Below, piece by piece: positions 1,610-18,569 of a stretch of DNA of 32,000 nt. Position numbers and translations under genes: made by a program. The stretch is from contig NC_017459.1 of NCBI RefSeq assembly GCF_000237865.1, positions 570,001-602,000 on the forward strand, given 5' to 3'. The notes below the pieces were generated by a model that made no database searches, was not told the DNA's origin, and saw only the letters and a program-made list of their open reading frames with translations. This DNA comes from Haloquadratum walsbyi C23 (GTDB taxonomy: Archaea; Halobacteriota; Halobacteria; Halobacteriales; Haloferacaceae). Numbering within the stretch: the stretch's first letter is position 1; each line of letters starts with the position of its first letter.

Positions 1610-2798
1610 GGAGCATCGCCCCCAGAAGTAATGAATCGCCGCGCGTGGCAGCTGTCATATCACGTTGCCACAAGGCTACCCGCCAGCCGATGATTCCGAT
1701 GATAATCCCAGTAATAGTACTATACCCAAGAATAAGTGTCGTACTCGCGACTGCCAGTGTATCACGCCGTTGGGCAGCAGCTGATTGTGTTGACTGCACC
1801 GTTTCAAGACGCTCTGTCATCTCATGTTTTTCAGCGATTTCGGTTGCTTGGTCCGCGTCATCAACAGCTTCCGTGGCGGATCGATACTGCTCAAAAACTC
1901 CGGCACCGTACGCACTGATCGCGGTTCCTGCTCCATCGCAGTTTGAGCAGGCCGAAATAAATGTCTGCGCTGAAGCGACAGATGCGTTTAATTCGTCGCG
2001 ATCGCGCTGAAATGTCTGTTTAAGTCGGTCAACTCGAATAAGTATCTGCGCATATCGTTCTGTTGAACCTGCTCGTTGGTATGCTCGTGCAGCGTCTTCA
2101 AGTGCTTTAATCCGGGTCTCTGTTGCACTGACCGTCTCAGCTCGTGATTGCAATTCTTGGCCAGTATCTGCATAAAACCGATCAATCGAAACACCAGCTA
2201 AGGCAGCGTACTGTCCACCCCCAGCTGTTGAACGTAGTTTTTCACCGACAACTGTGGTATTTTCTGCAGCGCGTATCGCCGCCTCGTATTCACCTGCCTG
2301 TTGTCGGTCATATGCGGTTGCGAATGTCTGTAACAGATCTAAAACAAGCCGCATCCGTGCTTGTTCAGCAGCGGTGAAATCACCAATCTGTACGGCAAAC
2401 ACAGCCTGTGATCGAATCACTTCGAACTCGCTATAACTGGTGTACGCGTTGTTTTGCTCAAGTCTGCGGAATGCAGCAAGGTAAGCACCAGCCGATTGTG
2501 GACTATCGCTGGATACACTTACATTATCATCTGTCTGTGTTATTGGTGTCTGATCAAACGTGTTTTGCGTGACTTCATCTGATTGTCCATATCCAGACAG
2601 TGCTGTTTCTCTTACCGCTTCTACCGGTATCCTCGTCTGGGCCATCGCCGCTCTCCGTTCAACAGTAGGTGCTGTCTTTACAATATCTGATTGTGCCGTA
2701 TTGGTGCTCGTTGCCGTTCCAGCTCCTGGAACAATCCCGGTAAAGGCAAACGCAATAATAACCAGAATGATCGCATAGTTTCTCCAGCATGGTGTCAT
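1602..2798 (-). CDS. Membrane-anchored protein with N-terminal signal/TM helix, about 340 aa Ala/Gln/Glu-rich helical domain predicted to be extracytoplasmic, and C-terminal TM anchor. Function unknown.
   Basis: The ORF track gives 1602..2804 with a GTG start. An ATG at 2798 lies 6 nt downstream of a GAGGTG Shine-Dalgarno-like motif, so I prefer it. N-terminal hydrophobic segment NYAIILVIIAFAFTGIVPGAG. Long helical-looking middle (AAFRRLEQNNAYTSYSEFEVIRSQ, RIKALEDAARAYQRAGSTERYAQILIRVDRLKQTFQRDRDEL). C-terminal TM TTLILGYSTITGIIIGIIGWRVALW followed by a basic tail. I recognise no family. Confidence 0.6.
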   Translation of the reverse strand: MTPCWRNYAIILVIIAFAFTGIVPGAGTATSTNTAQSDIVKTAPTVERRAAMAQTRIPVEAVRETALSGYGQSDEVTQNTFDQTPITQTDDNVSVSSDSPQSAGAYLAAFRRLEQNNAYTSYSEFEVIRSQAVFAVQIGDFTAAEQARMRLVLDLLQTFATAYDRQQAGEYEAAIRAAENTTVVGEKLRSTAGGGQYAALAGVSIDRFYADTGQELQSRAETVSATETRIKALEDAARAYQRAGSTERYAQILIRVDRLKQTFQRDRDELNASVASAQTFISACSNCDGAGTAISAYGAGVFEQYRSATEAVDDADQATEIAEKHEMTERLETVQSTQSAAAQRRDTLAVASTTLILGYSTITGIIIGIIGWRVALWQRDMTAATRGDSLLLGAMLRG

Positions 2799-2921
2799 GC
2801 CCACACCTCGACGCGTTCATCGACCTCCGATTTCGTCCGCAGTTTCTCCGGTGCACACATATATCGATTCGGATTGTAACGCTGTACGTAATCGAAATTG
2901 ATATTCGTTTCTCTACTCATT

Positions 2922-5900: not shown

Positions 5901-6212
5901 AAATCCTGAGGGCGTGACAGTGACCTCTCCGCTGTTATTATTCACACTCACATCAATCGAGGCAGCCGAGGCAGTTCCGACCCAATCAAAAGCAACTCCG
6001 CCAACAGCAAACACACACACAGCAACAATAATTAAAATGCAGACCCGGCGAGCAATCATCCATACTTGAGTATCAGTATCATCCTCACGCTGTCTTGGGG
6101 GACCCGTCTGCATCTGCTGACCTGATTGTGATTGTGACTGTGGGCATGCTTGAGACGTTTCAGACGATTCGATTGATGCGTGTGGTCGTGTGTATGGATG
6201 CGATGTACTCAT
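2922..6212 (-). CDS. Giant polytopic membrane protein (about 1096 aa). It has a short cytoplasmic N-terminus, a TM helix, an extracytoplasmic beta-rich domain of about 480 aa, a bundle of about 5 TM helices, three cytoplasmic CarboxypepD_reg-like beta modules and a helical acidic tail.
   Basis: The ORF track gives 2922..6341, but its first 43 codons (MRRQTAVSQVRSIVLRERHSRRDDFDRSNRILRIIFRIILGEY) overlap the upstream gene by 125 nt and are basic and non-halophilic. ATG 6212 (MSTSHPYTRPH...) lies 4 nt after the upstream stop, with GGGTGA just upstream. TM1 is VCILIIVAVCVFAVGGVAFDWVG. The later TM bundle includes VLLVLSGVLGVVVLGGASVV, IGVGIAAVVFILLFSWWAY, LVLTVLTTLLVSVAVTAGWG, MLSIIGGCLVVLIISLAAIVI and LYGLVYGLITSSMIITYLSV. 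Beta modules are seen at e.g. IAGAKITAEVTDNSQKQSYRGQTDQRGQW and GSVIFKNTPVGSYTVKP. Confidence 0.7.
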   Translation of the reverse strand: MSTSHPYTRPHASIESSETSQACPQSQSQSGQQMQTGPPRQREDDTDTQVWMIARRVCILIIVAVCVFAVGGVAFDWVGTASAASIDVSVNNNSGEVTVTPSGFEINGTEPVNVTVAGQTVIDNKPTSFNQSQSITFNIRNISNDRNLNLKSANITLTVVNQNKTGSTNADLRYVKKGDGTPQITSDGIKIPSSTVIGVPEAEVPIQISQNGLSQTIIGEYRSDERAIVVRQKAFLDTGVALTSNIDVRVLPDGSTQQYTITTEQNPRPEITGSKSAQQQSISHPLITPGKEYTLTVQTKNPDGTYTQTQEVTDTQSLTVPGQVRFANTLSITIEQKNGAVRNIVYDGRGSPNDVINIQSQRQTATWNTSTDQIIVDGGSEVSGQATLWIAQNDSYTQYSVTSMSSGINASGYPIPENESVLLVDEDGTIWNVNIASGSSGEGASQISGGQSPDDSSEGLIATILGGDNPVLLVLSGVLGVVVLGGASVVRRTQSLPRATSIGVGIAAVVFILLFSWWAYSNDSLVLTVLTTLLVSVAVTAGWGELRTTSLAEDDIGAAMLSIIGGCLVVLIISLAAIVIDLGNIQNSLYGLVYGLITSSMIITYLSVETGAEPAGQTTTSSYKTGTLRIQLRDATGTPIEREVDVTIKPQSSSASNSKLISVSGGSETISMRQGHVQATAVVNGQQKQAKASVDGTESRITLRFDGQQLAVKTIDQSGSQDPSPIAGAKITAEVTDNSQKQSYRGQTDQRGQWRQQVPLSVSEVDITADHDQYEKTTQTVAVGEGQAQVDIQMRQLIGEIHATITIGDEPVSTVPIIAIREETGNKAVLDPDTNGSVIFKNTPVGSYTVKPDLSEYDNAFTESKREIRVIDGETEQIELPVSFDYRLPSELSNRRRQLERRVDEIGSIERRDSAIPLYYASVLAKALRSVERIPSSGYELLTAGGNARPDAVAESLLDAIETSADTVESVMTSKRNVDLFSACSNMAEVSVTWRGSVDISRITSLAREDIGQQRSVVNEQIGEVDEAVSSAVGDVAEVAPAREMVESVTTMVRDQNTTDQVESAAFVAVAEALLNAVEELFEHDPLRERMERTVY

Positions 6213-6216
6213 ATAC

Positions 6217-7449
6217 TCACCCAGAATTATCCGAAAGATAATCCTCAAGATTCTGTTTGATCTGTCGAAATCGTCGCGGCGGGAATGTCTCTCCCTCAAG
6301 ACTATCGACCTCACTTGAGAGACCGCTGTCTGTCGCCTCATCCATCATTCGTTCGAATTTTGACCATGAGACATCTAATAGTGGATCAAGATCGAACCCA
6401 CCGAATAATAACAGCACATCGATACTATCTCGACGAGACTGATGTGGTGTGAGCGTCGGCATCTGATGAACAACATTATCCATCCCATTGCTTGCAAGCC
6501 ACCGTTGGAGGCGACGTTCAAGACCAGCCTCTGAGTATTCACCACTATCGATTGCGTGTTGTGGGACCCGAACAATCGCGTACACAACTTTTGCGGTAGC
6601 CGGATCCATTGGTATAAAAAGATTATCTGCGGCTTTATCAAAAAGCAATTCTAACTCAAATATTGATGGCTGCTCCATGGCAGTCCCGGCAGTAAAATGA
6701 TATTCATCAAGCCGCCGTGGCCATGCAATAAGATCTCGAACGTCGACCACACTGTACGTCTCTCGACCAGCGCTAATCATCATATCAACTGCTTCAATCG
6801 CATTTCGATTAACCGTCTCATGACGACTTTCGTCATCCTCTCCAAGTTCTTCATCGTTTGAGACATGTGAGTTTGAGATTAATAATACCATCTCAGCGTT
6901 TTGACTCCCATCATACCATCGAAGTAACCGTGAAAGTCCGGAAACAGCATTAAAATGACGTTGCCCTCCCTCAAAATCATATGGCCATGCCGCGAGAGCA
7001 ACATGCGTGACATCGCGCATCGCATTTGTTGGTGGGTTATTTTTCAAACTATCAATAATATATGGCACTGAGCCATTCCCTGTCCCGCCGCCAAGAGTCG
7101 TCATATAGAGAAATGCATCTGCTTCATCAACCCCACCAGTGGTGATTGCCTCTGTAATTCGTGTTTCATCAACTGCAGCGCATTGCTCACCACCAGGGAA
7201 GTAATTTCCAACACCGTCGAGCGGACCGAACTCAAGCGTGTGATCAGCTCTAATATCCTGAATGTCGATTGTATTCTGTTCAATACGGTCAATTGTGTTT
7301 GCGATGTCTGCGCGATTCGTGTTCATGACTAATACCCGGTCATCGATTCCAGGATTCTCAGTGCGACTGAACAGTGTCGATGCCATCCGGCCACCCCCCT
7401 CACCCGATGCGAGAACGGCCCAGCGCGTGTACGTGTCTGATTGGGACAT
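6217..7449 (-). CDS. Tubulin/FtsZ-superfamily GTPase, divergent paralog (410 aa)
   Basis: The GTP-binding loops can be read directly. T1 is AVLASGEGGGRMAS. T3 is GVGNYFPGGEQ (compare tubulin GAGNNWA). T4 is the tubulin signature TTLGGGTGNGSVPYII. T5/H5 is WPYDFEGGQRHFNAVSGLSRL (compare the FtsZ PFxFEGxxR...A..G pattern). T6 is LLISNSH. A T7-like VVDVRD matches the xxDxxD pattern. The C-terminal region is acidic. Confidence 0.85.
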   Translation of the reverse strand: MSQSDTYTRWAVLASGEGGGRMASTLFSRTENPGIDDRVLVMNTNRADIANTIDRIEQNTIDIQDIRADHTLEFGPLDGVGNYFPGGEQCAAVDETRITEAITTGGVDEADAFLYMTTLGGGTGNGSVPYIIDSLKNNPPTNAMRDVTHVALAAWPYDFEGGQRHFNAVSGLSRLLRWYDGSQNAEMVLLISNSHVSNDEELGEDDESRHETVNRNAIEAVDMMISAGRETYSVVDVRDLIAWPRRLDEYHFTAGTAMEQPSIFELELLFDKAADNLFIPMDPATAKVVYAIVRVPQHAIDSGEYSEAGLERRLQRWLASNGMDNVVHQMPTLTPHQSRRDSIDVLLLFGGFDLDPLLDVSWSKFERMMDEATDSGLSSEVDSLEGETFPPRRFRQIKQNLEDYLSDNSG

Positions 7450-7480
7450 ATATATCGGTATACGTGCAGTGTGTAGTTGT

Positions 7481-7488
7481 ATTTATAT
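7481..7488 (-). promoter_or_regulatory. Candidate TATA box (ATATAAAT on - strand) for the 6217-7449 tubulin-like gene
   Basis: An AT-rich octamer lies 32-39 nt upstream of ATG 7449. This is compatible with a haloarchaeal promoter giving a very short leader. Based on position and sequence only. Confidence 0.25.
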
Positions 7489-7863
7489 GTGTGCTCGATG
7501 TCAACTGCGATTGCGTCTTAGTATCGTTGTTGGTTTGATTGCGTTTTTTATTTTGTCTGTGTTCTTGCTGCAGATGGATATCACAAAGCAAGGTTCAATA
7601 TCTCACATAATAGCCGATCCTGTCGGCATATCGATATCCAGAGTGGCTTCTTGAAGTAACCTACTGATGATACTGCTGTCTGGATTGCTACCGTGTCGGC
7701 TTACTTCCAAATAGTCATTATCCATATACACGATGATGAGTTAATCCGAATGGTATTCGCTGATATATATTTTCGATTCGTATCATCATATATACATTTT
7801 TAATTCAGTGCTAACTCATTGATGCATATAATTACATGCGAACGTGTATATGTAAGTCTAGTT

Positions 7864-8080
7864 GTGATTGACATCCTCCTCCACATAAACGCGGAGGAAT
7901 CCTGAGCGTGAGCATTAGAGATTTCAGGTTTGCAGTTCCACCGAACCCCGCATGGTGAGAATCCGTGTGGGGTTCACAAACTGTGACGGGGCGAGTGGGA
8001 CTGCTGGGAGTGCCACATCTCAGCGTGGCTATTGCAGCGTAGGATTCATCCTGTGGCTGAACCCGTAGGTATTCTCCTTG
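7864..8080 (-). repeat. Copy 1 of a noncoding repeat family (MITE-like or structured-RNA-like), read on the - strand
   Basis: The reverse complement shares ordered blocks with 23243-23420 (+): AAGGAG(A/T)AT, GAT(G/T)TGGCACTCCCA, CTGCA(AA)CCTGAAA(T/C)TC(T/C)C and GGATTCCTCCGCGTT(T/C)(A/G)TGGA(G/A)GAGGAT(G/A)TCAA(T/C). Spacing between the GGCACTCCCA and GGATTCCTCC blocks is similar (113 vs 121 nt). It contains a TCCTCC...GGAGGA hairpin. Boundaries are approximate. Confidence 0.55.
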
Positions 8081-8143
8081 ACCCTGTATAATAGAAATCA
8101 TGTGTGCATTTTTATGTTATTCTCAACGACAGTATGAAGTAGC

Positions 8144-10240
8144 TCATGATTCCTTTTTTTGCAGTTCTCCGTCAACTATCATACCGTCCTCATTATTTGT
8201 ATTGATGAGTGATTTTATTTCACTATCCGGAACTGGAGCTGAAAGGAATCGCTCTCTCAACCCATCAAGTGAAATTGTCTCACCCTTATCAAGATTGTAT
8301 GTGAGTACGTTTGTTAACTCCTGCCGCAGACGGTCACTATCGTACACGATAATCGTTCCATCGGTATTTTCGATTGCGGTGTGGTCAGCACGTTCAGCCC
8401 ATAACACGAGCAAGCATGGAACGTATGATTCATCAATTTGATATGACATTGTTGAACTCAGGTATGTTTTCTCATCAAACTGCGTCGAAAACCGTGATGC
8501 AAGATCATCAAGATACGCTGAGGCTTCCTCAATTATTCCATCACAGACCCGGTCTTGAAGTGTTATTGATGGTACTGATAGCGATATTTCAGTATCATCA
8601 CTCACAGAGATCTCCGTTTCAGCTGACCCGAAGTCATCAACAGCAGCTACTGCTGTAACTGTATATTCGCCGAATGGGACATCACTGAACGTTGCGGTCC
8701 CAACAAGTGGCGTCTCAACGGTCATTTCATCCGTATAGTCCGTACCGTCCAAAACGATTCGAATTTGACGATCAGAACCACCACGTTCGAACTGGACAGT
8801 CACTGTCACGGTGTATGTTTCAGTTCCCCCAACTCGTCTGAGACTTGGAACATCCATGTTGAGTGTCACATGATCGGGGTGTGACCGATAATACAGTCCT
8901 AAGAACTGAGTCTCATGATTTCGGACAGGAAGCTCCTCGCCGGTAATTTGCCCATCGCTCTGAAGCGCAGATTCAATCACCGGTTCAACTTGATTATATC
9001 CGCTGATGACAGCGACTTTTGGCTTGACCTTGTCAATTCCGTTCATCAGTGCATCAACTGCCGTAGCCCATCGCTGTTCAAACGTTTGAAGGGTATCACT
9101 ATCCTGCACTTTTCTGAGATAATCTGTCTCAACCGCTGCAGGTGGTGTATAATATCCATCTGGAATATCCGCATCAGCGAGCTCTGCATCCATTGAATTG
9201 AGCTCTGTGGTCAGCGCGTCAATGATCTCAGTGCACTCTGCTCGCGTTTTCTTTCGATGCATCGCAAGTGTTGAAAGATCGACAGCATCAGTAAGTTCGG
9301 CGACAGATCGCCTTCTCTGAGCGATGTCCGGTGCTGAGTCAGGAAGGTACTGCTCGATATTGTACTCATCAACTGTCTGTAGAAGCGACTGAAGTTGCTC
9401 TCGATTTGTCTTGAATGTGCTTTCACCCTTGGTTTTAATTGCATCGCGTGCACGGAGGAGTGCAGTCACTGCATCAATTATTTGATAACTGCTGGCTGCT
9501 TCCCGTGCCGTCTCAACCTCTGTTTCGATCGCTGTCGTCTCAATATCATCAGCACTCCGTGCAATGGATTGAATTGTCTCTGCGGCCGCATCAACCGTCT
9601 CTACTGCCTGCCCTCGAGCAGCCTCGAGTGACTCACCCGCAGCAGCAACTTCTGCACCTGCGGTTGTCGTTGTGACATCAATCGCACGTACAGCGTCTCC
9701 ACCATCCTCAATGAGTGCATCCAGTCGATCGAGCGACTCAGCGATCGTCTCAATGCGGTCTTCGACAGTCTCAGCGAACGCTGCTGGCAGTTCCTCCTCA
9801 ATATCATCGACCTGTCCTGATAATGAATTAATTGTTTCAAGATCTGAAACATTACCAACTGAAAACGCACCAGTTTCTGTGTCGACATCGATTCCTGCTG
9901 TTTGAAGATCACGCTGCAGTGAATCAATCCCAAGTCCAACTCCAGTATCAATGATAGCCGGATATGTTTGTTTCAATTGTTGGCGTGTCTGCCAGATATC
10001 ACTGAACGTCTCACCAACTTCTCGCGCACGTCGTCGAGTATACTGCGTTTGGTCCGTCCCGCTTGCGTCAACTCGTCGTTGAATCCAGACACCACCGCTG
10101 ATGAGTAACAACGGTACCATCCCAACTGCTGCATATACTGCCCACTGTGACCCAACAGCGACGAAAACACCTGCACTCACCGCTCCAGCAAACACAACGA
10201 GTCCAATAAGACCGGCGGCTGTCCGAGTTGATGATTTCAT
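8144..10240 (-). CDS. Membrane-anchored protein (about 698 aa) with two N-terminal TM helices, a long acidic Ala/Glu/Thr-rich helical (coiled-coil-like) region, a CarboxypepD_reg-like beta module and a C-terminal alpha/beta domain
   Basis: The ORF track gives 8144..10336, but its first 32 codons (MVCNFRSTRWWWRIDSCWDYYRCPQWNNRSNI) overlap the upstream gene and are Trp/Cys/Arg-rich. ATG 10240 (MKSSTRTAAGLIGLVVFAGAVSAGVFVAVGSQWAVYAAVGMVPLLLISGGVWIQRRVD) forms an ATGA overlap with the upstream stop. The helical region includes ETVDAAAETIQSIARSADDIETTAIETEVETAREAAS. The beta module reads TYTVTVTVQFERGG...TATFSDVPFGEYTVTAVAAVDDFG. Confidence 0.7.
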   Translation of the reverse strand: MKSSTRTAAGLIGLVVFAGAVSAGVFVAVGSQWAVYAAVGMVPLLLISGGVWIQRRVDASGTDQTQYTRRRAREVGETFSDIWQTRQQLKQTYPAIIDTGVGLGIDSLQRDLQTAGIDVDTETGAFSVGNVSDLETINSLSGQVDDIEEELPAAFAETVEDRIETIAESLDRLDALIEDGGDAVRAIDVTTTTAGAEVAAAGESLEAARGQAVETVDAAAETIQSIARSADDIETTAIETEVETAREAASSYQIIDAVTALLRARDAIKTKGESTFKTNREQLQSLLQTVDEYNIEQYLPDSAPDIAQRRRSVAELTDAVDLSTLAMHRKKTRAECTEIIDALTTELNSMDAELADADIPDGYYTPPAAVETDYLRKVQDSDTLQTFEQRWATAVDALMNGIDKVKPKVAVISGYNQVEPVIESALQSDGQITGEELPVRNHETQFLGLYYRSHPDHVTLNMDVPSLRRVGGTETYTVTVTVQFERGGSDRQIRIVLDGTDYTDEMTVETPLVGTATFSDVPFGEYTVTAVAAVDDFGSAETEISVSDDTEISLSVPSITLQDRVCDGIIEEASAYLDDLASRFSTQFDEKTYLSSTMSYQIDESYVPCLLVLWAERADHTAIENTDGTIIVYDSDRLRQELTNVLTYNLDKGETISLDGLRERFLSAPVPDSEIKSLINTNNEDGMIVDGELQKKES

Positions 10241-11358
10241 AATATTGCTCCTATTGTTCCACTGAGGACAGCGATAATAATCCCAGCAAGAATCAATGCG
10301 CCACCACCACCGAGTTGAGCGGAAATTGCAGACCACTCCAGTTGCCGACCAAAGTCGGCGAAATCCCTAGTTTTCCGTCCAAGTATGTGTGTCCGATAAC
10401 CAGCAATAACAGCTCCAAGTGCAATTCCTGGGACCGCACCAATCGCGAGATTACTTAACACGCTAATTCGCGCACGCTGCTCAACGGCTGCAAGTTTCGT
10501 TGCATACTGACTCATGGTTGCATTTACCGCCTGCGATTGGTTCTGTTGTTCTGCTGTAATTTCCTCAAATGCATTTAGATGAGGTTCTGAGCCGTCGCGC
10601 GCACGATTGAACAACTGCCTACGGAGTTCTGCTGCATCCGCGCGGGCAGCCGTTCGTGACGCGTTCAGTGTGTTGAGTGTCCGGTTGGCTTCCTGAAGTT
10701 TGCTTACAGTCATATCGACACGTTGTTCATTGGCTGTGAGTTCCTCAGTAGTCGTATTAAGTGAATTAAGTGATTCTGTTATTGATTCCGTGGCATTACG
10801 GTAATCCTGCTCATTGCCTCGGTATGCAGTAGCATTCGAAAATACAAGTGGCTCCTGTGCTAAATCTGATTTGACAGTCCCCTCACGCTGTGTCTGTATT
10901 CGTACTGTATTATCAACAGATGCGCTCAGGGTGGTGTCATCGAGCGTCACGACTGTACTATCGAAGCCGACCGTCGCTCGATATGTTCGCCCATTGGCAC
11001 TCGGTGAAATATCAACCAGATTTTCCGTATCAATATCCCATACTGTTGTCTCTCCTGGCTGAGGTCGCTCCGCACCGTTTGCTGTGCAGTACCCGATGTA
11101 TAATTCAGTTCCTGGATACACTGGTGTGTTAGCATCATATTGCTGATTATTTAGGAAGACAACAACTGTATCAGTCTCTCCCTGACACGCGCTCTCGACG
11201 GTCTCCTCAGCGGGTTGAACAGCAGCAACTCCGCCGGTTGCTACCGTGAGTGTCACACCAACATTAACAATTAATATAATGACAACGACTCCATATCGTA
11301 TCCACTGTCGGCATTGCATCGGCAATTCATGTTCTTGTGGACGGTTTGTATTCGTCAT
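10237..11358 (-). CDS. Membrane protein (373 aa) with N-terminal signal-anchor, extracytoplasmic beta-rich plus coiled-coil domain, and two C-terminal TM helices
   Basis: ATG 11358 overlaps the upstream stop (ATGA). N-terminal TM is VVVIILIVNVGVTLTVATGGVAAV. The beta-rich part includes TVVVFLNNQQYDANTPVYPGTELYIGYCTANG. The helical part includes LNSLNTTTEELTANEQRVDMTVSKLQEANRTLNTLNASRTAARADAAELRRQL. C-terminal TMs are LAIGAVPGIALGAVIAGY and GGGGALILAGIIIAVLSGTIGAIL. Confidence 0.7.
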   Translation of the reverse strand: MTNTNRPQEHELPMQCRQWIRYGVVVIILIVNVGVTLTVATGGVAAVQPAEETVESACQGETDTVVVFLNNQQYDANTPVYPGTELYIGYCTANGAERPQPGETTVWDIDTENLVDISPSANGRTYRATVGFDSTVVTLDDTTLSASVDNTVRIQTQREGTVKSDLAQEPLVFSNATAYRGNEQDYRNATESITESLNSLNTTTEELTANEQRVDMTVSKLQEANRTLNTLNASRTAARADAAELRRQLFNRARDGSEPHLNAFEEITAEQQNQSQAVNATMSQYATKLAAVEQRARISVLSNLAIGAVPGIALGAVIAGYRTHILGRKTRDFADFGRQLEWSAISAQLGGGGALILAGIIIAVLSGTIGAIL

Positions 11359-11627
11359 AGCTGATTATCCCAGTACAGAAACACACCAATACTCCCAAGA
11401 ATGCTCCCGATGCCTGCTCCGAGGAGTACACCAGCCCCAATATGTTGTATTGTTTGTTGGCTTGTCTTCACCGCTGCAAGCACTGATTCTGTCTGCATTT
11501 GCATGGTTGATGCGCTCGGTGGTGCTGCACCAGCAACAGGATCTGGTGTGAGAGCAATTATTACGCCTACACAAACAAATATACCAACAGTGACGACCAT
11601 CCCAATGGTAATCGGTTCACGTCTCAT
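11355..11627 (-). CDS. Small two-TM membrane protein (90 aa)
   Basis: Its ATG shares one nucleotide with the stop of the upstream tubulin-like gene (TGATG), and its own stop overlaps the next start (ATGA). Hydrophobic helices are ITIGMVVTVGIFVCVGVIIAL and GAGVLLGAGIGSILGSIGVFLYW. Coding status rests on the coupling and the TM pattern only. Confidence 0.55.
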   Translation of the reverse strand: MRREPITIGMVVTVGIFVCVGVIIALTPDPVAGAAPPSASTMQMQTESVLAAVKTSQQTIQHIGAGVLLGAGIGSILGSIGVFLYWDNQL

Positions 11628-12916
11628 CAGGCAATCACCGCGTCTGATTCCGTTTCATATTCTTCTGCAAGCGTCTCTAATTCAGTAAGTCGCTCAAGAT
11701 CCTCTCGTCGATATGTAAATAAAGTTGTGAATGAAACCAAACTTCGATTTGTCAATGTTGCACCAAGATTCACCTCATCACATCGGGCATGGAGAAATGA
11801 CCGCAACGTCGATGTCTGAATTTGGTAGTCTGTATCAGCAATATACGTCGAAGGTGCACGCAACAGTCCAATTGCCTTTCGTGCCTCCCGTGTATCGACG
11901 TCTGCAACAGTTTGTTTTAGTTCAGCGACTTGTGAGAGTGCTGTTGCATCAATCTCATTTTGTCCAATAAACGGCAATAGATATCCAGCGAGTGATTTCG
12001 TCATCTCCACCGACCGACCCATCGACGCGTATCCGGTTTCGGTATCCTCCCCCAGACCGAATGAAAGGCTCGTTACGATATCTTGAATATCAATAATTGG
12101 TGGATCAACATCATATTCGCTCCGATCAATCCGCTCAAGAACAGTCCCTGAAATGAGACTCACAATTGCAGAGGCGACGTATTCGTTTAGATCCGTGAAC
12201 TGTCCCTCTGCGGCTTCATGATATGAAAGCCGTTCATTATCAATGAGGATGATGCCATCTGCAACCTGCTCAATCTGATTGAGTCCATAGCGAGCATTCC
12301 AGGCTTGTCGACTCGGTGAAGCGCCCTCATCAGATTCATTATTGACCGTCCCAACCGGACCCTGAGTATTTGGAAGCACACAGACCGCGATTGTTTTGCA
12401 TGTTCCGCCGGTGTACTCATCAATCGCATCGATAATATGTGCAGTGATTCCACACCCTGTTCCGCCACCAAGTCCACAGAACACAAACGCAAACGGTACG
12501 TTCGTTTCCTCAGTTTCGACCACTGGGTCTGTCGCTGTTGTTCCGGTATCATCCTCTGAGCTATCACCAGTATTCACCGTCTCTTCTTCGAATTTAATCT
12601 GCTCTGTCAATTCATCATACAATGTATTATCAAGCGCTGCCCGGTTATTCGTGATTACCTCATCAGCTCGAACCGGATTGCGCCCGAATCCACCTGTCAC
12701 CTGCTCTTCGAATCCATCTGTCGTTCCCGGGACCAGTCCTGCACCTTCAGCAATTCCGTACCAACTATTTCGATCGATATTTGTGAGCTTCCGCAGGTCT
12801 CTGACTGTCGAATTGAAAACAAGATGTGTCGCAATCTCATCCATATTATTATGAGCGAATATCTCGTCCACAATAGAACTGCCAGCCTGTCCTGCACCCA
12901 CAAAAAGGTATGGCAT
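11627..12916 (-). CDS. Tubulin/FtsZ-superfamily GTPase, CetZ/tubulin-like divergent paralog (429 aa)
   Basis: T1 is MPYLFVGAGQAGSSIVDEIF (compare the tubulin/CetZ GQAG pattern). T3 is TGGFGRNPVRADEV. T4 is the tubulin signature FCGLGGGTGCGITAHII. T6 is IILIDNERL (compare tubulin DNEAL). A T7-like IIDIQD is present. An acidic Thr-rich insertion (EEETVNTGDSSEDDTGTTATDPVVETEETN) precedes T4. The C-terminal tail is acidic (LAEEYETESDAVIA). Confidence 0.9.
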   Translation of the reverse strand: MPYLFVGAGQAGSSIVDEIFAHNNMDEIATHLVFNSTVRDLRKLTNIDRNSWYGIAEGAGLVPGTTDGFEEQVTGGFGRNPVRADEVITNNRAALDNTLYDELTEQIKFEEETVNTGDSSEDDTGTTATDPVVETEETNVPFAFVFCGLGGGTGCGITAHIIDAIDEYTGGTCKTIAVCVLPNTQGPVGTVNNESDEGASPSRQAWNARYGLNQIEQVADGIILIDNERLSYHEAAEGQFTDLNEYVASAIVSLISGTVLERIDRSEYDVDPPIIDIQDIVTSLSFGLGEDTETGYASMGRSVEMTKSLAGYLLPFIGQNEIDATALSQVAELKQTVADVDTREARKAIGLLRAPSTYIADTDYQIQTSTLRSFLHARCDEVNLGATLTNRSLVSFTTLFTYRREDLERLTELETLAEEYETESDAVIA

Positions 12917-12942
12917 TATTGTATCTATGTTTAATCCACTCT

Positions 12943-12948
12943 GATAAA
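12943..12948 (-). promoter_or_regulatory. Candidate TATA box (TTTATC on - strand) for the 11627-12916 tubulin-like gene
   Basis: It lies 27-32 nt upstream of ATG 12916, inside the 108-bp gap after the preceding gene. The position fits a leaderless haloarchaeal transcript. Based on sequence and position only. Confidence 0.25.
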
Positions 12949-13024
12949 CATGTCTGCTCGCTCAGGATTATATCTGTTATGCGAGTACGTAACCAACTCT
13001 ACTGCGTTATGATGATCATCACGG

Positions 13025-14740
13025 TCACCCGCGTAACTGCTCGAGTAGCACACTGTATGCTTGACGCTCATATAGCTCCATCACCCAATCAAGTGTCTCA
13101 TCAGCGGCCTGTAAATACCCAATTGCTCGGTCGGTATTCCCTGCTGCTCGTGCATCATCAGCTGCTTCCTGCAGTGAGCTCACGAGTTCAAGAAAGTGAA
13201 TTGGGATGCTATGATCGTGTGTTGGATACTCAGAAGGATACTCTGTACGAAGGGTTGATCGCCGTGATTCAATCTCTTCAGCGAGTGTCTGAACGCTAAG
13301 CCCACTGGATTCTCCGGTCGGCGACTGTAGTTCTGGGCATAATGTTCGATCATAAAATCGTAATTCCTGTCGCGCTGCATATACACTTACACGATCTGCG
13401 GGTCCTGCTTGTGAGACAGTTGATTCAAGCTCAGCAGCGCGATCAGCCAATATTTTCCCAATTGCTGCATCGGTTTTTTGAAACTCAGTCACGAGTGACC
13501 CCGCTAACTCAGCGACAGAATCAGTCTCAACCCCCTCGAGCCGGTCTGCGGTAACAGCGGCTTCATCAATTACTGTCACAGCCGATTGCAGCGTCTCAGC
13601 GTACCTCGAAGCAGCAACATCATCTGCTCGGATCACATCAATCAAACTCTGACTTCGACTACTTTGTGGAGAAATTGCTGCCCGCTCAATGACAGTATTG
13701 ATGTCAGTCAGTGCCGTGGTAAAGGCGACTTCCTCATTCGTTAGCGCCGTGGTGATTTCGTCGAGCGCTAAATCGGGATTGGTGTTTGGATCAGCACTAA
13801 CTGACTCACCAGCCTGCTCACGAACAGCGTTGCATATTTTCTCAATGCTCGTAACCATTGACGCCTGTGTACTATGACACTCATCTCTGTCAGTAACGAC
13901 ATCTGCAAGTCGTTCGCCAATAATTGTGATTGCTGACCCAGCGTCTCCATCGATTTTGACCCCCTTTTGTTGCAGTGTTTGTGCTAATTGCTCTGGTTCA
14001 ACATGCGGTCGTACTGTTGACAGTGCTTGGTGTGTCTCAGCATCGCGCTCAATTCGTTCAACTGCTGTGGTAAGTGTATCGGTTAGTCGTCGTTCAGCAG
14101 TGTTATTTGTCGCTTCAAGATACCGAAGAAGTCGGTTCGCAGTGTCTGTCTGTGGGTCTGTCCGTGCTGACGCTGTTTCAGCTGCATTAGCTAATAACGC
14201 CGAGACTGTCTTGTTAGTTGTTTCTGTTCCTTCAGTCATCTTTGTGTGAGTATTTTCACCACTGGTAGTGTTCGTGTCACTCATCACAACACTCACATCA
14301 TCATGGCTTCCTGTCGTCTCCTGCCCTCCAGGCGACGCGTCGGAACCTGATGCAGTTGGTGGGATCAGCTTATTTTGATCTGCAGCGCGGAGGATTGCAG
14401 TCGCCTGCGTTGATGGATTTGCATTTTGATCAACGATTTCTCGTTCGATCAACCTGGCTTCAGCGACAATCTTATTGATAGCGTCGATGAAGACGGCAGG
14501 ATCGTGATTTATCTTACCTATTGATTCTGTTGCTTCTGTTGGTTCTATTGTTTCTGACCCTGAGTCACCTTGCGTGCGAATCCCGATAATAAATCCTATG
14601 ACTCCACCAAGAAATAAAGAAATCACCGCCGACCCAGCAAATAATGCTATATTCTCGACACCGAAATCATTGAGTATGTTGATAACGACTACCACACCCT
14701 TACCGGAAGCCACTCCTGCATCAACGAGTATATTCATCAT
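13025..14740 (-). CDS. Membrane-anchored long acidic helical protein (about 571 aa), function unknown
   Basis: The ORF track gives 13025..14860, but its first 40 codons (MRESLLSKAKIKKHRSYGKHGKQSSHCLIVLVEKIWGDWT) overlap the upstream gene by 113 nt and are very basic. ATGATG at 14740 lies 7 nt after the upstream stop, with GGGGTGA just upstream. TM is IALFAGSAVISLFLGGVIGFIIGI. The rest is Ala/Thr/Glu/Asp-rich and helical-looking (TVSALLANAAETASARTDPQTDTANRLLRYLEATNNTAERRLTDTLTTAVERIERDAE). Confidence 0.7.
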   Translation of the reverse strand: MMNILVDAGVASGKGVVVVINILNDFGVENIALFAGSAVISLFLGGVIGFIIGIRTQGDSGSETIEPTEATESIGKINHDPAVFIDAINKIVAEARLIEREIVDQNANPSTQATAILRAADQNKLIPPTASGSDASPGGQETTGSHDDVSVVMSDTNTTSGENTHTKMTEGTETTNKTVSALLANAAETASARTDPQTDTANRLLRYLEATNNTAERRLTDTLTTAVERIERDAETHQALSTVRPHVEPEQLAQTLQQKGVKIDGDAGSAITIIGERLADVVTDRDECHSTQASMVTSIEKICNAVREQAGESVSADPNTNPDLALDEITTALTNEEVAFTTALTDINTVIERAAISPQSSRSQSLIDVIRADDVAASRYAETLQSAVTVIDEAAVTADRLEGVETDSVAELAGSLVTEFQKTDAAIGKILADRAAELESTVSQAGPADRVSVYAARQELRFYDRTLCPELQSPTGESSGLSVQTLAEEIESRRSTLRTEYPSEYPTHDHSIPIHFLELVSSLQEAADDARAAGNTDRAIGYLQAADETLDWVMELYERQAYSVLLEQLRG

Positions 14741-14747
14741 TGTCCAA

Positions 14748-16634
14748 TCACCCCATATTTTCTCGACCAAGACAATCAAACAGTGGCTCGATTGTTTCCC
14801 ATGCTTCCCGTAGCTCCTGTGCTTCTTTATTTTCGCTTTGCTCAACAAGCTCTCGCGCATGTTTATACATTCGCTCTAGCGTCGGGAGGTTTGGATTCCA
14901 TATGAGCCCCCACAAATAGACATTGTCTACGTGTGGCACAACGAGCTGATTAACATAGATATCAACCGAACTAGGTCCATCATATTGCTCGCGTGCGAGA
15001 AAGTCTTGACCGCTTAGGATTGATGTCAATTCACCATCTTGCAGTAGTGGCTCAAGTTCCTCCATCTTCTCTGCTGGACCATACGCCATGAACGTGCCAC
15101 CCCATGCACTCTTTGGATCAAAATCAACGAGTTGCCCTTGCAGAAGCGTCGATCGTGCAAGTGTATCTAATCGCGCTCTATCGAATCGACTGGCACTTGT
15201 CGTTCCAATCACTGGCGCCATTACCACAGCGGGAGTGTATGCTCGCTCACTAGCGACGCTATATTTTCGTTGGACTGGGCGAAAACTGTCTGGAACATCA
15301 AACACCTCACCACTAATTCGTTCAGTCCCCGTAGTATCTGCTGACTGTGGTGTTGACGACATCGTAAACGCCTCAAGGAACGTCACCAATAGGCGATTTA
15401 CATCAGTGTACATTGGTGGATTATAATGCTCAAGTGCCGCCTGATCAATATCGACAGCAAAATCGGTTCGCTGTGCATCAAGTTTGCTATTATCGAATGG
15501 GATGATACCATCAACGTGTTTTGAGAGATATGCCATTCCAACTACCCCACGAACCATCTCTGATGCGCCAAATTCAGTCTCCGACGGAAGGACCACAGAA
15601 CTCAAAATTGGCTTCGAAAGTGTCGTTGCGTCTGCAACACCTGTTCCCTCACTCACGAGATTTCGAATATTCTTCGCTAAAACTGGAGTAGATCCACATC
15701 CAGTGCCCTTTGTAACGCTGTGGATCAACATCACAGCCTGTGATGCCTCTAAATCACGCTGGTCAACATCAAGCCGGTCCTTGATTGCATTTTTTTCATC
15801 CTCAAAATCTTTCTGCATGAGTGTTCGACCAACCTTCCAATTACGCCCTGCACCGCTGTAATTATGATGTCGGTAGCCAATCATCCCATTTGTAATGAGT
15901 TTTTCTCTTGAAAACGCTCGATCCTGCTGTGCATAAAATGTATTTCCTAACTCCGCAATATTGGTATTCAATCCTGCATAGTCTGCTAGCCCACCATCCC
16001 ATACTTGTGCAAGCGGACTATTTTGCTCACGCAGCGTCTCTCGACGGAGTAAAATAGCGTCAAGAATATGATTACCAGCCCCACCGACACCAATCATCTG
16101 CCATTTATTCCCTGTTGCGCCAACCAGCGGCGTTGACCCAGGGACACTCACACTGTTGTCGACACCCTCGTCACTGATTGCATTCACACTCTCACTCTCC
16201 AAGCGATTTTGTCCGGCGTCATCACGTATCTCGATAGTGTCGGTCGAATTCGACCCGTTCCCTCTATTTACACTTCGTGTCGACCCCGATGATCCTTGAT
16301 TAGTTGAATTCGATGTTGATTGTGTTAAATTATGTGCTCCTTCCGTATTTGAATTGGTATCACTACTTGCGCTGTCGTTATGATGTGATTCACTCTCATT
16401 TTGACTTCCAGTGCCTGACGTCGTAATATGTAGTGATGAGTCCTCATCATCGCTATCCGAGCTATCATCGCGATACTGCGGTCGCAACTCGCCATTGCTA
16501 TCAAAGATTGTATTATATCGGTCTGCGTATACCTCTTGAACGGATGCTGGTGTTCCTGCATGGTCAGCAGCGATGTGTTCTTCAATACTTTGCTCATCAA
16601 TTTCGCGCAGGCAGATTTTGCAATTGTCTGTCAT
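14748..16634 (-). CDS. Tubulin/FtsZ-superfamily GTPase paralog fused to an N-terminal C2H2-like zinc knuckle and a low-complexity linker of about 150 aa (628 aa)
   Basis: The N-terminus is MTDNCKICLREIDEQSIEEHIAADH (CxxC...HxxxxH). A S/D/N/T-rich linker follows (DDSSDSDDEDSS...NSTNQGSSGSTRSVNRGNGSNST). Tubulin-like loops are then visible. T1 is WQMIGVGGAGNHILDAI. T3 is YSGAGRNWKVG (compare tubulin GAGNNWAKG). T4 is degenerate, SVTKGTGCGSTPVLA. T6 is IIPFDNSKL. A T7-like VFDVPD is present. Confidence 0.85.
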   Translation of the reverse strand: MTDNCKICLREIDEQSIEEHIAADHAGTPASVQEVYADRYNTIFDSNGELRPQYRDDSSDSDDEDSSLHITTSGTGSQNESESHHNDSASSDTNSNTEGAHNLTQSTSNSTNQGSSGSTRSVNRGNGSNSTDTIEIRDDAGQNRLESESVNAISDEGVDNSVSVPGSTPLVGATGNKWQMIGVGGAGNHILDAILLRRETLREQNSPLAQVWDGGLADYAGLNTNIAELGNTFYAQQDRAFSREKLITNGMIGYRHHNYSGAGRNWKVGRTLMQKDFEDEKNAIKDRLDVDQRDLEASQAVMLIHSVTKGTGCGSTPVLAKNIRNLVSEGTGVADATTLSKPILSSVVLPSETEFGASEMVRGVVGMAYLSKHVDGIIPFDNSKLDAQRTDFAVDIDQAALEHYNPPMYTDVNRLLVTFLEAFTMSSTPQSADTTGTERISGEVFDVPDSFRPVQRKYSVASERAYTPAVVMAPVIGTTSASRFDRARLDTLARSTLLQGQLVDFDPKSAWGGTFMAYGPAEKMEELEPLLQDGELTSILSGQDFLAREQYDGPSSVDIYVNQLVVPHVDNVYLWGLIWNPNLPTLERMYKHARELVEQSENKEAQELREAWETIEPLFDCLGRENMG

Positions 16635-16640
16635 TGTCGG

Positions 16641-18569
16641 TTATGCGTATACTGATTGTAGTTGCTTCATTACTCGTCGTGGGCTCACTCCATCTGCGAC
16701 TTCAATAGAGAGGAATCCTGGTGGTGGATTCGATGGAACTGCTACGTGAACTACATCGCCTTGTCGCTCGGCGAATGATTTAATTTCATTAAGAACGGCT
16801 GATTTGATAAACTTCGCCGGGAGTTGCTCAGTTTGGAGTTCGACAGTGCTTTTTCCACGCTGAGATGCGGCATTCGCTTGCAGTTCACCAAGCACATACA
16901 GCACATCATCATGTGGTACCTCTGCATCTTGGGGGTTACCCCCGGTTAATGCTGCATGTTCACCTGTGCTATCTACCGTCCCACTATATTCTGCTCCGGT
17001 CGAATTGGTGGTGGCATCGCCTCCAGTAGACTCTGTTTCTGGATTGTTACTCTCTGTTATATTTAACACCCCCTCTGCAACCTCATATTCAATATAATAA
17101 CTCTGTTCAAATGGCACGCGTAATCTCTCAACAAGAGTAGCATCGATTGACGATGGGACAGGAATTGAACCGGATCCGTACTCAATCGTCGCTGTGACGC
17201 TTTGACCAAAGAACTCGGCAATTTGAACTATCTCTCTTGCCTCTGTCTCTGCTGCGTCAGCCGATTGTATTGCTGCATCAAATCGACATTCATGTAATGT
17301 TTTGAGTGCTTCCTCACGATAATCATCAACAGTTGGCTTTGTTGGCAGAGATTCACCAGTCGATGACTCCGGTGTCCGACCTTCGAGGAGATACGCCTCA
17401 AGTCGTTCTTGTGCCGGTCCCTCTAATTCATCAAGATTTGCTGTCGCCGTCTCGATTGCTCTCTGTGCTGCATCTAGTGATTCAGCAATAGATTCTTCAT
17501 GTGTCTGAAGTGTTTGCTCAATCGCATCAAGATGTGTATCAATTGTATCAATTGCCCCAGCAACAGCAGCAAGTCCATCCGGATCCGCTTCGATCGTTTC
17601 GGTAAGTCGAGTTGCTATTTCATGCTGCGATCCCCCAATCTGAATAGTTGGTTCATCAATTGTTGGTAATGAGACCGAGTTGTGCGTCCGCAGATTTCGG
17701 ATCGTATACTCACGACTGAATCGTGAAACATAGTGCACATCACTGTATCGTTCGTTAATTTTGTCTTCGACTTGTCGCTCTAATGTAGATATTACTCGCG
17801 TAGCAGTCTCCCCTGCAACATCATTGAGTTTCGCCGCATCAGCTTGCAGTTGTGCAGCTGTATCATGACGCTCACGACTCGATGTTGACCCATCGACAAC
17901 TGCATCCGCTTCATCCTGAACCGCTTGACACCGATCTCGAAACTCACTGCATTGTGATTCGAACGCTGTGACCGCCTCTGGTGCAATTGTCTTTAGTGAA
18001 GATTGTACCTGTTCGCCCACAACTCGCTCAATTTGACTGTTAAACGTTGTGAGCGCCTCCTGTGTGTCTTCGCGGGCAGTAGATAACGCCTTTGTAGCCT
18101 CTGAATCAAGTGTTATACTCCAATCAAAAACAAGCGATGCTGCCCAACTCATCGCTGCGGTTCCGATAGGGACAAACAAGAACCCAGCAGTTTGAATCGC
18201 TGGGAGCCCTGCGGAAGCAACTGGAAGATACACAAGCTCAAATAACACAAGAAATAGTGTCACAAATCCGGTTGCACCAAGCGTTATGACACGATGTCGA
18301 AGCGCAAATAATCCAACACCCTGTGCAGTCCATGCAAGTGCAATGAGGACAAATAATATAAAGACAATCGTCGAACTTGACCGGAAAATATTACCTGCGA
18401 CCCTAAACACAGAAATTGACCATAAAAACCGAGTAAGTGACCCGATCAAGGGAATTACTGTGACTGTCGTCTCAAGCAGCGCGACCGTTGCCTGCACGAA
18501 GGATGCAAGAATTGGCAACCCAGCGACAGCCCAACAGCCTGCCGCAATTCGCCGCCTGTTCTGCAACAT
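16641..18569 (-). CDS. Polytopic membrane protein (642 aa) with 4-6 N-terminal TM helices followed by a long acidic helical domain and a C-terminal alpha/beta domain. It is the first gene of the cluster.
   Basis: The N-terminus is basic (MLQNRRRIAAG). Hydrophobic helices follow: WAVAGLPILASFVQATVALL, IVFILFVLIALAWTAQGVGLFAL, GATGFVTLFLVLFELVYLPV, FLFVPIGTAAMSWAASLVF. The helical region includes IDTIDTHLDAIEQTLQTHEESIAESLDAAQRAIETATANLDELEG. Its stop lies 6 nt before the next ATG. Confidence 0.7.
   Translation of the reverse strand: MLQNRRRIAAGCWAVAGLPILASFVQATVALLETTVTVIPLIGSLTRFLWSISVFRVAGNIFRSSSTIVFILFVLIALAWTAQGVGLFALRHRVITLGATGFVTLFLVLFELVYLPVASAGLPAIQTAGFLFVPIGTAAMSWAASLVFDWSITLDSEATKALSTAREDTQEALTTFNSQIERVVGEQVQSSLKTIAPEAVTAFESQCSEFRDRCQAVQDEADAVVDGSTSSRERHDTAAQLQADAAKLNDVAGETATRVISTLERQVEDKINERYSDVHYVSRFSREYTIRNLRTHNSVSLPTIDEPTIQIGGSQHEIATRLTETIEADPDGLAAVAGAIDTIDTHLDAIEQTLQTHEESIAESLDAAQRAIETATANLDELEGPAQERLEAYLLEGRTPESSTGESLPTKPTVDDYREEALKTLHECRFDAAIQSADAAETEAREIVQIAEFFGQSVTATIEYGSGSIPVPSSIDATLVERLRVPFEQSYYIEYEVAEGVLNITESNNPETESTGGDATTNSTGAEYSGTVDSTGEHAALTGGNPQDAEVPHDDVLYVLGELQANAASQRGKSTVELQTEQLPAKFIKSAVLNEIKSFAERQGDVVHVAVPSNPPPGFLSIEVADGVSPRRVMKQLQSVYA

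Follow-up and report, generated by a model that had tools for sequence, protein, structure and literature searches.

The window analyzed here, a 32,000-nucleotide (nt) stretch of the genome of Haloquadratum walsbyi C23 (contig NC_017459.1, positions 570,001 to 602,000 of the forward strand), contains a run of ten tightly packed minus-strand genes at 1602..18569, which we designate g1 to g10 in their order along that strand. The second of these, g2 (14748..16634), encodes a 628-amino-acid (aa) protein of the tubulin/FtsZ superfamily that combines a predicted N-terminal C2H2 zinc finger, a long disordered linker, and an altered nucleotide-binding signature. The open reading frame (ORF) list of the window gives the gene exactly the boundaries reported in a preliminary description drawn up from the DNA sequence alone; its ATG lies 6 nt past the TAA of the upstream g1, and its TGA lies 7 nt ahead of the ATG of g3. 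By exact-sequence look-up, the product is 100% identical to Haloquadratum walsbyi C23 WP_014555346.1/CCC39500.1, which UniProt names “FtsZ family protein, noncanonical” (G0LK74) and NCBI names “cell division protein FtsZ” or “FtsZ/tubulin family protein.” A word-indexed search recovered 108 homolog clusters with lengths of 450-710 aa, and those that carry an organism name are all haloarchaeal. The family is not new: it is the clade named “Halo.Tub” by Santana-Molina et al. 2023 (Front Microbiol, PMC9871819), a Halobacteria-specific tubulin-like group with an unstable position between CetZ and the tubulins. In the supplementary files of that study, WP_014555346.1 holds the joint top score with WP_092734419.1 in the Halo.Tub C-terminal hidden Markov model (HMM) output and also appears in the trees, and WP_092734419.1, WP_089806311.1, and ERG90714.1, all recovered by us as g2 homologs, are likewise found in its Halo.Tub hit list or trees. 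In what follows, the family alignments comprise 33 and 91 sequences, motif counts were made over 109 sequences, and the DNA-level check covers 34 loci that contain the T4 region.

The g2 protein is built of three parts with very different conservation across orthologs. The N-terminal module (residues 1-55; 16470..16634, like all features of the gene on the minus strand) consists of the finger, with the ligands C5, C8, H20, and H25 (nt 16560-16622), followed by two short helices that bear the conserved motif S-V-x2-V-Y-P-D-x-Y-x2-L-F; it shows 40% mean identity, with 3% of the window residues opposite gaps. Next comes a linker rich in S, N, T, D, and G (residues 62-173; 16116..16451), with a predicted local distance difference test (pLDDT) score below 50, 13% identity, and 64% of its residues opposite gaps. 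The core, with 55% mean identity and 0-2% of the window residues opposite gaps, comprises a GTPase (nucleotide-binding) domain (residues 177-400; 15435..16106) and a C-terminal (activation) domain with a conserved extension (residues 401-628; 14751..15434; pLDDT mostly >85), which closes with the near-invariant tail C-L-G-R-E-N-M. The signature elements of the superfamily can be located in order: the T1 loop G182-V-G-G-A-G-N188 (nt 16071-16091), the T3 loop G261-A-G-R-N-W-K-V-G269 (nt 15828-15854), a variant T4 signature, T308-K-G-T-G-C-G314, that replaces GGGTG[ST]G (15693..15713), a T6-like FDNSKL at residues 380-385 (nt 15480-15497), and, at the T7/H8 junction, F-D446-V-P-D449-S-F with a putative catalytic acidic pair (15282..15302). 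The motifs read earlier from the sequence (C5-K-I-C8, H20-I-A-A-D-H25, T1, T3, T4, and FDNSKL) are thus all found in the ORF. The 13-residue spacer then given between the Cys and His pairs should be amended to 11 residues between Cys8 and His20 (about 10-14 in orthologs). The low-complexity stretch then put at about 150 residues is real, but the predicted disorder is limited to residues 62-173, about 112 aa of which S makes up 23%, N 12%, T 11%, D 9%, and G 9%, and residues 1-55 are predicted to fold as one module. Across the family the linker varies in length from 21 to 148 aa.

The evidence for the finger begins with its conservation. The 33- and 91-sequence alignments show no or almost no variation at C5, C8, and H20, and at least 90% of the sequences conserve H25, the exceptions having the spacing H-x3-H or H-x5-H instead; the ligand pattern of the family is C-x2-C-x(10-14)-H-x(3-5)-H. 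A hydrophobic residue stands 3 positions ahead of the first His, a Trp or Ile 8 residues before it, and mostly a Leu, Ile, or Val directly after it. At the DNA level the finger, with its Cys and His residues conserved, is encoded in frame at all 34 loci, and a start codon precedes it in each, namely, an ATG 2-4 codons off at 33 loci and a GTG 1 codon off at the last. Some of the genomes covered, Haloarcula rubra F13 and Halorubellus among them, have a truncated annotated protein. The C2H2-like zinc motif noted in the preliminary description is therefore a family-wide feature whose ligands are conserved in orthologs and whose start codon lies upstream rather than downstream of it. In 17 database proteins the full CxxC...HxxxxH is missing, but 13 of these still have both His residues, with the start called at an ATG just past the CxxC, usually a Met that directly follows it (“CKIC-M...”). 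This points to start-codon miscalls in the finger-less entries. Altogether, about 1 in 7 deposited or predicted proteins of the family have a start codon placed within or past the finger, and such miscalls conceal it from domain-architecture searches.

Structure prediction and a reverse profile search bear on the class of the module. In the AlphaFold model of full-length g2, residues 1-55 have pLDDT values of 80-97. The 51-residue module folded alone reaches a pLDDT of 87.6, and its predicted secondary structure comprises a hairpin (3-4/11-12) and a helix (17-24) that carries both His residues (pLDDT 84-90), and the conserved S-V-x2-V-Y-P-D-x-Y-x2-L-F forms two more short helices. Run against 1.84 billion representative proteins at a threshold of E ≤ 1e-3, a module profile retrieved 245 proteins. 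The full-length matches among them are members or fragments of the g2 tubulin family only, and of 17 out-of-family matches checked against Pfam, 15 are mostly multi-finger proteins with zf-C2H2, zf-C2H2_4, zf-H2C2_5, ROS_MUCR, zf-BED, or zf-Di19 domains, the other two having no Pfam match. The most divergent members of the family (30-35% identity) possess two tandem copies of the module. We conclude from these profile matches that the complete module, finger plus extension, is confined to the g2 tubulin family. The evidence as to its class is mixed, for reasons taken up below, and leans toward a C2H2-class finger with a family-specific helical extension; we infer that the module binds zinc. 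On average the module carries a net charge of -7, and Glu, Asp, Ser, and Thr predominate at the helix positions ahead of the first His.

The assignment of the remainder of the protein to the tubulin/FtsZ superfamily is supported by both profile and fold. PF00091 matches residues 180-385 with 50.2 bits against a cut-off of 33 (E = 4.9e-13). The AlphaFold model, computed from the 91-sequence alignment, has a mean pLDDT of 82.8, with residues 177-628 mostly above 90. Foldseek searches of PDB with this model returned as best matches CetZ2 (4B45; E = 3.6e-16) and CetZ1 (4B46), with template modelling scores (TM-scores) of 0.76-0.80 when normalised to the CetZ chain (0.80 on the target for 4B46), followed by gamma-tubulin, archaeal and bacterial FtsZ, and OdinTubulin. 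The top matches range from E = 1e-16 to 1e-13, with TM-scores of 0.57-0.80 normalised to the target, and their alignments span 409-505 columns, which means that both the GTPase and the C-terminal domains are covered. As modeled, residues 177-628 form a complete two-domain tubulin/FtsZ fold with a Rossmann-like domain, the core helix H7, and an activation domain. The tubulin-like GTPase of the preliminary description thus stands, and the C-terminal part, about which it had left room for doubt, is tubulin-like by profile as well as by fold.

Within the superfamily, the position of g2 is a distant one. Searched as a single sequence against solved structures, it found nothing better than E = 0.15; FtsZ (6e-8), CetZ1 (1e-7), and BtubA (2e-6) were reached by the family profile only. 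Its identity to solved relatives is 15-18% (CetZ 15-16%, FtsZ 15-18%), and by these sequence comparisons the family appears to be about equidistant from all solved tubulin/FtsZ proteins. The NCBIfam FtsZ equivalog model TIGR00065 scores 28.2 bits against a cut-off of 295.2, and because of this shortfall the name “cell division protein FtsZ” is unjustified for g2. Similarly, PF13809 (Tubulin_2, FtsZl1) remains below its cut-off, with 18.9 bits against 27; the g2 model contains no coiled coil, and the protein has 628 aa as against about 1000 aa for FtsZl1. Overall, g2 belongs to the tubulin/FtsZ superfamily and to Halo.Tub; it is neither an FtsZ proper nor an FtsZl1, and it is probably not a CetZ. 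With the FtsZ label and the start miscalls, two routine annotation problems are put right for the family.

The nucleotide site of g2 combines one striking departure with the retention of most other elements. The PROSITE tubulin signature, [SAG]-G-G-T-G-[SA]-G, has no Lys at position 2. In g2 a Lys takes the place of the second Gly, and the G-T-G-x-G half is retained. K-G-T-G-x-G is present in 109 of 109 sequences, the whole variant being [TVS]-K-G-T-G-x-G: TKGTGCG occurs in 101, VKGTGTG in 6, which are the most distant, and SKGTGCG and TKGTGSG in 1 each. Two still more distant members beyond the 109 have VKGTGSG and VKGTGTG. The two other tubulin-family proteins of the operon, g4 and g8, have the canonical forms GGGTGCG and GGGTGNG. 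The T1 loop, the T3 Gly-x-Gly and Trp, the FDN motif, and many further columns are invariant in the g2 family. So are D446 and D449, which lie shortly after a long core helix of the model (407-427) and which hhalign places opposite the I-D-I-Q-D of the paralog g4; by position, this pair probably corresponds to the D-x-x-D of the FtsZ T7/H8 junction. The T4 of g2 had earlier been called degenerate. It is true that GGGTGxG is replaced by TKGTGCG; however, a change kept in every member is better regarded, on this pattern of conservation, as a fixed feature of the nucleotide pocket of the family (G-G to T-K) than as decay. The Lys could contact a phosphate, pair with the incoming T7 acidic residues, or alter the nucleotide preference. 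As the residues that would activate hydrolysis in the neighbouring subunit are retained, g2 is more likely to be an active, polymerising GTPase than a dead capping subunit. An invariant Lys in the phosphate-binding signature loop also amounts to a natural experiment on a motif that is otherwise held nearly immutable.

The genes around g2 are joined by 6- and 7-nt spacers and several ATGA overlaps, and seven of the ten products have transmembrane (TM) segments in a TM scan. Upstream, g1 (16641..18569) encodes a 642-aa membrane protein with about 5 N-terminal TM helices and a long coiled coil; its stop lies 6 nt before the g2 start, and it is kept upstream of g2 elsewhere. Downstream and equally kept in place is g3 (13025..14740), which encodes a 571-aa acidic coiled-coil protein that the TM scan indicates to be membrane anchored. 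It is followed by the second tubulin-family paralog, g4 (11627..12916; 429 aa; PF00091 E = 4.8e-11; hhalign to the g2 core E = 3e-14). The small g5 (11355..11627; 90 aa, two TM helices) overlaps both the stop of g4 and the start of g6; at its position an 81-aa gene is called in Haloarcula and a 252-nt gene is annotated in Halobacterium salinarum. Next are g6 (10237..11358), a 373-aa membrane protein with 1 N-terminal and 2 C-terminal TM helices and a coiled coil, and g7 (8144..10240; about 698 aa), in which an N-terminal TM helix is accompanied by a coiled coil and a weak prealbumin/SpaA-like match. The third tubulin-family paralog, g8 (6217..7449; 410 aa; PF00091 E = 3.6e-10; hhalign to the g2 core E = 4e-11), has as its closest solved relative CetZ1 (4b46; E = 7e-6). 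The cluster ends in the window with g9 (2922..6212), a polytopic membrane protein of about 1096 aa with a CarboxypepD_reg-like domain, and g10 (1602..2804; about 400 aa), which has N- and C-terminal hydrophobic segments and whose position in H. salinarum PHS2 is likewise occupied by a gene. The paralogs g2, g4, and g8 show no more than a remote relationship among themselves (hhalign E = 1e-11 to 1e-14), a distance that marks them as ancient lineages and not recent duplicates.

Several observations concern the annotation and surroundings of this cluster. The mechanical ORFs of g3, g7, and g9 extend into the preceding genes (14741-14860, 10241-10336, and 6213-6341). Their true starts are likely to be 14740 (7 nt after the g2 stop), 10240 (in an ATGA overlap with the g6 stop), and 6212, the last because of the gene spacing in Haloarcula. 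Between g7 and g8, a gap of about 690 nt (7450-8143) has no convincing ORF and no Rfam match, and the Rfam scan found no RNA family anywhere in the window; the corresponding gap is 487 nt long in Haloquadratum J07HQW1 and 2 nt long in Haloarcula. A full-length MutS gene with domains I-V (18984-21788) immediately precedes the operon on the same strand, an adjacency seen in Haloquadratum only among the loci examined. Farther off, at 27179-28873 (minus strand), is a 564-aa fusion of an NAD kinase (PF01513/PF20143) and an inositol-monophosphatase-family domain (PF00459), which we take to be of the known archaeal bifunctional NAD kinase/NADP phosphatase type. Matches of the neighbours of g2 in PADLOC and PHROGs (ZorA tail, JetC, and LmuB) are weak and of a coiled-coil type, and we rejected them as compositional. 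Makarova et al. 2024 described for H. walsbyi a Halo_adaptin/ESCRT system with a CetZ-like gene; we rejected g2 as that gene, since neither a Vps4/AAA nor an ESCRT-III domain was detected among the cluster proteins and the other large ORFs scanned.

The operon recurs among haloarchaea, and its gene order is kept at the loci that have enough flanking sequence. It is present in at least 33 haloarchaeal species, from genera that include Haloarcula, Halovenus, Halorussus, Halopenitus, Natrinema, Halorubrum, Halobaculum, Haloarchaeobius, Natronomonas, and others; conservation was assessed by tblastn, which often fails to detect the diverged g6 and shows g9 where the flanking sequence extends that far. 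Most genomes carry the operon on the chromosome, and H. salinarum R1 (PHS2), Natrinema, and Halobaculum have it on large plasmids. The whole operon is found in the same gene order on PHS2 (NC_010369.1, about 172.6-189.8 kb), where the g2 ortholog WP_049892685.1 has both the finger (MRCKIC...HILDKH) and TKGTGCG, and the g8 ortholog is annotated merely as “hypothetical protein.” A literature search on “ftsZ5” of Halobacterium turned up nothing relevant. The distant two-finger subfamily comes from metagenomic contigs with acidic proteomes, on which g4-g9 are absent over the 14-17 kb recovered. In these loci g1, g2, and g3 stay together (g1, HMM E = 1e-76; g3, blastp of the C-terminal region 1.5e-9 and 2.9e-5), and since the three genes are retained there without g4-g9, they constitute an invariant unit. 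At two of these loci a gene of the FtsZl1 type (PF13809, about 1145 aa) adjoins g1-g2-g3 (L036, 1113-4550; L038, 10826-14269), which suggests a link between two poorly understood tubulin-superfamily systems.

Tubulin-family filaments are usually coupled to membranes or cargo by separate adaptor proteins or by short terminal peptides. Taking the above observations together, we propose that Halo.Tub g2 might instead carry its own tether. The protein most likely binds and hydrolyzes GTP and forms filaments, and the finger, at the tip of a flexible linker of about 20-150 residues, would act in cis by docking on a protein partner and thereby couple the filament to the membrane complex encoded in the operon. 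The linker has the properties of a tether, being disordered, poorly conserved, and free to vary in length. The likeliest partners would be the co-conserved membrane proteins g1 or g3, because these alone always accompany g2. A protein is favoured over a nucleic acid because of the net charge of -7 and the Glu/Asp/Ser/Thr character of the helix face. We propose this reading by analogy and hold it to be about as likely as not. It preserves one half of the preliminary suggestion that the finger could tether the polymer to a partner or to nucleic acid, the half concerning the partner, and makes the other half unlikely. Going further, and now clearly on the doubtful side, the operon might specify a membrane-spanning cytoskeletal machine of haloarchaea that is undescribed so far and that combines seven membrane proteins with three tubulin-family GTPases of ancient divergence; in it, g2 would be the founding filament, finger-tethered in cis to the g1/g3 module, and its Lys T4 would confer a handling of nucleotides unseen in characterised tubulin/FtsZ proteins.

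Several observations weigh against the proposed tether. With regard to the module itself, a Pfam scan of the N terminus of the window g2 gave no match at all, and the best zinc-finger scores on orthologs are sub-threshold (zf-Di19, 24.0 against 27.5; zf-C2H2, 11.3 against 25.2). Foldseek found no significant match to the 51-residue module (best E = 4.2), although about 10 of the 13 matches listed, none of them significant, are of C2H2 type, including the U1-C type, and the best-fitting ones superpose with a root mean square deviation of 2.2-2.8 Å over 26-30 columns. With regard to the partners, the topology of g1 by the alignment-averaged positive-inside rule is ambiguous, so that g1 and g3 may or may not offer the finger a cytoplasmic face, and the soluble parts of both proteins are poorly conserved coiled coils, unexpected for the specific docking site of a well-conserved finger. 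Finally, the T4 Lys could impair GTP binding, and the target of the finger might just as well be g2 itself, be it the invariant C-terminal tail or an adjacent subunit.

This last point leads to the strongest competitor, in which the finger acts inside the polymer: it would bind the g2 core or C-terminal tail, in its own or a neighbouring subunit, and bring about auto-inhibition, cross-linking or bundling, or a zinc- or redox-sensitive switch of assembly. Strong conservation and restriction to this family characterise not only the finger but also the C-terminal extension (W575, G576, N580, P581, M589, W612, and the tail LGRENM), and the poor conservation of the soluble parts of g1 and g3 speaks for the same idea. 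The module also has pLDDT values of 93-97 in the full-length model as against 84-90 alone, which might reflect docking on the core or just the deeper alignment. However, a linker free to vary from 21 to 148 residues suits a separate target better than a fixed intramolecular contact, and the fact that g1 and g3 strictly accompany g2, distant lineages included, points to hetero-complexes. We consider action within the polymer a serious but rather unlikely alternative.

Less probable still is the role suggested in the preliminary description, that of a regulator: g2 would fail to hydrolyze GTP or to polymerise and would nucleate or cap filaments of g4 and g8. In its favour, g2 alone among the three paralogs departs from GGGTGxG, with a Lys that lies outside the PROSITE signature, and the presence of three distinct paralogs in one operon invites a division of labour comparable to that of alpha-, beta-, and gamma-tubulin. 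This view is weakened by the invariance of the T7 acidic pair, which would be dispensable for a pure cap at one end, and likewise of T1, T3, and T6. The T4 variant, fixed as it is throughout the family, looks like a selected state; the g2 core is the best conserved among the cluster proteins; and the distant g2 proteins occur with g1 and g3 but without g4 or g8, the canonical-T4 paralogs that they would have to cap, on contigs of 14-17 kb.

It is also conceivable, at a yet lower level of probability, that the finger binds DNA or RNA and that the system positions a plasmid or chromosomal locus in the manner of TubZ-TubR-tubC partition. C2H2 fingers classically bind nucleic acid, the module profile also matches prokaryotic DNA-binding fingers of the ROS/MucR type, and some genomes carry the operon on large plasmids. 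Nonetheless, nucleic acid binding is unlikely because the module is strongly acidic and the helix positions that classical fingers use for DNA contact are mostly Glu, Asp, Ser, or Thr. The operon lacks TubR-like and other DNA-binding genes and is chromosomal in most genomes, and no repeats resembling a centromere were noticed. Moreover, its seven membrane proteins, some with immunoglobulin-like (prealbumin/CarboxypepD_reg-like) matches, are unlike a partition cassette. That g2 is a plain cell-division FtsZ, as the source annotations have it, is hardly tenable in view of its TIGR00065 score, its 15-18% identity to solved FtsZ structures, the patchy distribution and partly plasmid-borne location of the operon, and the placement of Halo.Tub outside FtsZ1/FtsZ2 in the 2023 phylogeny (PMC9871819).

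If the proposed tether is correct, a folded zinc finger on a long flexible arm of a filament subunit would represent a new kind of filament linkage. Further, g2 draws attention to a conserved operon of three tubulin paralogs and seven membrane proteins, and we expect the system to be of solid interest to archaeal cell biologists. H. salinarum R1, which is genetically tractable, carries the operon on a plasmid, making deletions, tagging, and cryo-tomography feasible.

The authors of the preliminary description were not aware of a zinc finger on a protein of the tubulin/FtsZ family, and we too found no report of one in the literature searched, the coverage of which is incomplete and no proof of absence. 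Four features of the system appear to be unreported: the conserved C2H2 finger and linker of the g2 family, the fixed Lys in its T4 signature, the recognition that the “quasi-tandem copies” represent three ancient paralog lineages in a 10-gene membrane-protein operon, and the g1-g2-g3 core unit. The study that named the clade (Santana-Molina et al. 2023, PMC9871819) treats Halo.Tub phylogenetically only. Its main text does not contain the word “zinc,” it does not discuss the T4 variant or propose a function, and it leaves undescribed the disordered linker, the separation of the paralogs into three lineages, and the conservation of g1-g2-g3 as a triad.

Several parallels are offered by known systems. 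The CetZ proteins provide the best structural matches to g2, share with it an FDN-type T6 motif, and like it occur in Halobacteria. They differ in having a canonical GGGTGSG, in lacking both the finger and the N-terminal linker, in their unrelated gene context, and in their identity to g2 of just 15-16%; the E-value of the g2 profile to CetZ1 (1e-7) is no better than that to FtsZ (6e-8). The 2023 phylogeny (PMC9871819) keeps Halo.Tub apart from CetZ, and the gene context of the clade is unrelated to that of CetZ. A different resemblance is seen in FtsZl1, a divergent group of the tubulin superfamily whose operons abound in membrane proteins and for which a role in membrane remodelling has been proposed (Makarova & Koonin 2010). 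Here too a divergent tubulin-superfamily gene lies amid genes for membrane proteins; yet FtsZl1 proteins are about 1000 aa long, contain a coiled coil internally, and have the canonical GGGTG(S/T)G, and their operons typically contain vWA proteins, of which the g2 operon has none.

With regard to the finger, the classical C2H2 domains (zf-C2H2 clan; ROS/MucR) agree with the g2 module in ligand pattern, in the hydrophobic position, in the reverse profile matches, and perhaps in the fold, predicted as a beta-hairpin and helix. Unlike them, the g2 version is strongly acidic, possesses two extra family-specific helices, falls below every Pfam threshold, and is fused to a cytoskeletal GTPase. As for the overall architecture, FtsZ has a polymerising core, a disordered C-terminal linker, and a conserved C-terminal peptide that binds FtsA, ZipA, or SepF. 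The likeness to g2 is in the combination of a core, a variable and unconserved linker, and a small conserved binding module for coupling to the membrane; the proposed tether of g2, however, is N-terminal and tipped with a folded zinc finger, whereas that of FtsZ is C-terminal and ends in a short peptide. A functional analogy, and an analogy only, is offered by CdpC (HVO_0399) of Haloferax volcanii, which consists of a zinc finger, a 240-residue disordered linker, and a second zinc finger, anchors FtsZ1 to the membrane, and depends on its zinc ligands for function (bioRxiv 10.64898/2026.07.16.738847). In both of these haloarchaeal cases zinc fingers and a long disordered linker would stand between a tubulin-family filament and the membrane. 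CdpC, however, is a separate protein that acts in trans, with C3H and C4 zinc ribbons for fingers, whereas the finger of g2 would be of the C2H2 beta-beta-alpha type and would act in cis, as part of the filament subunit itself.

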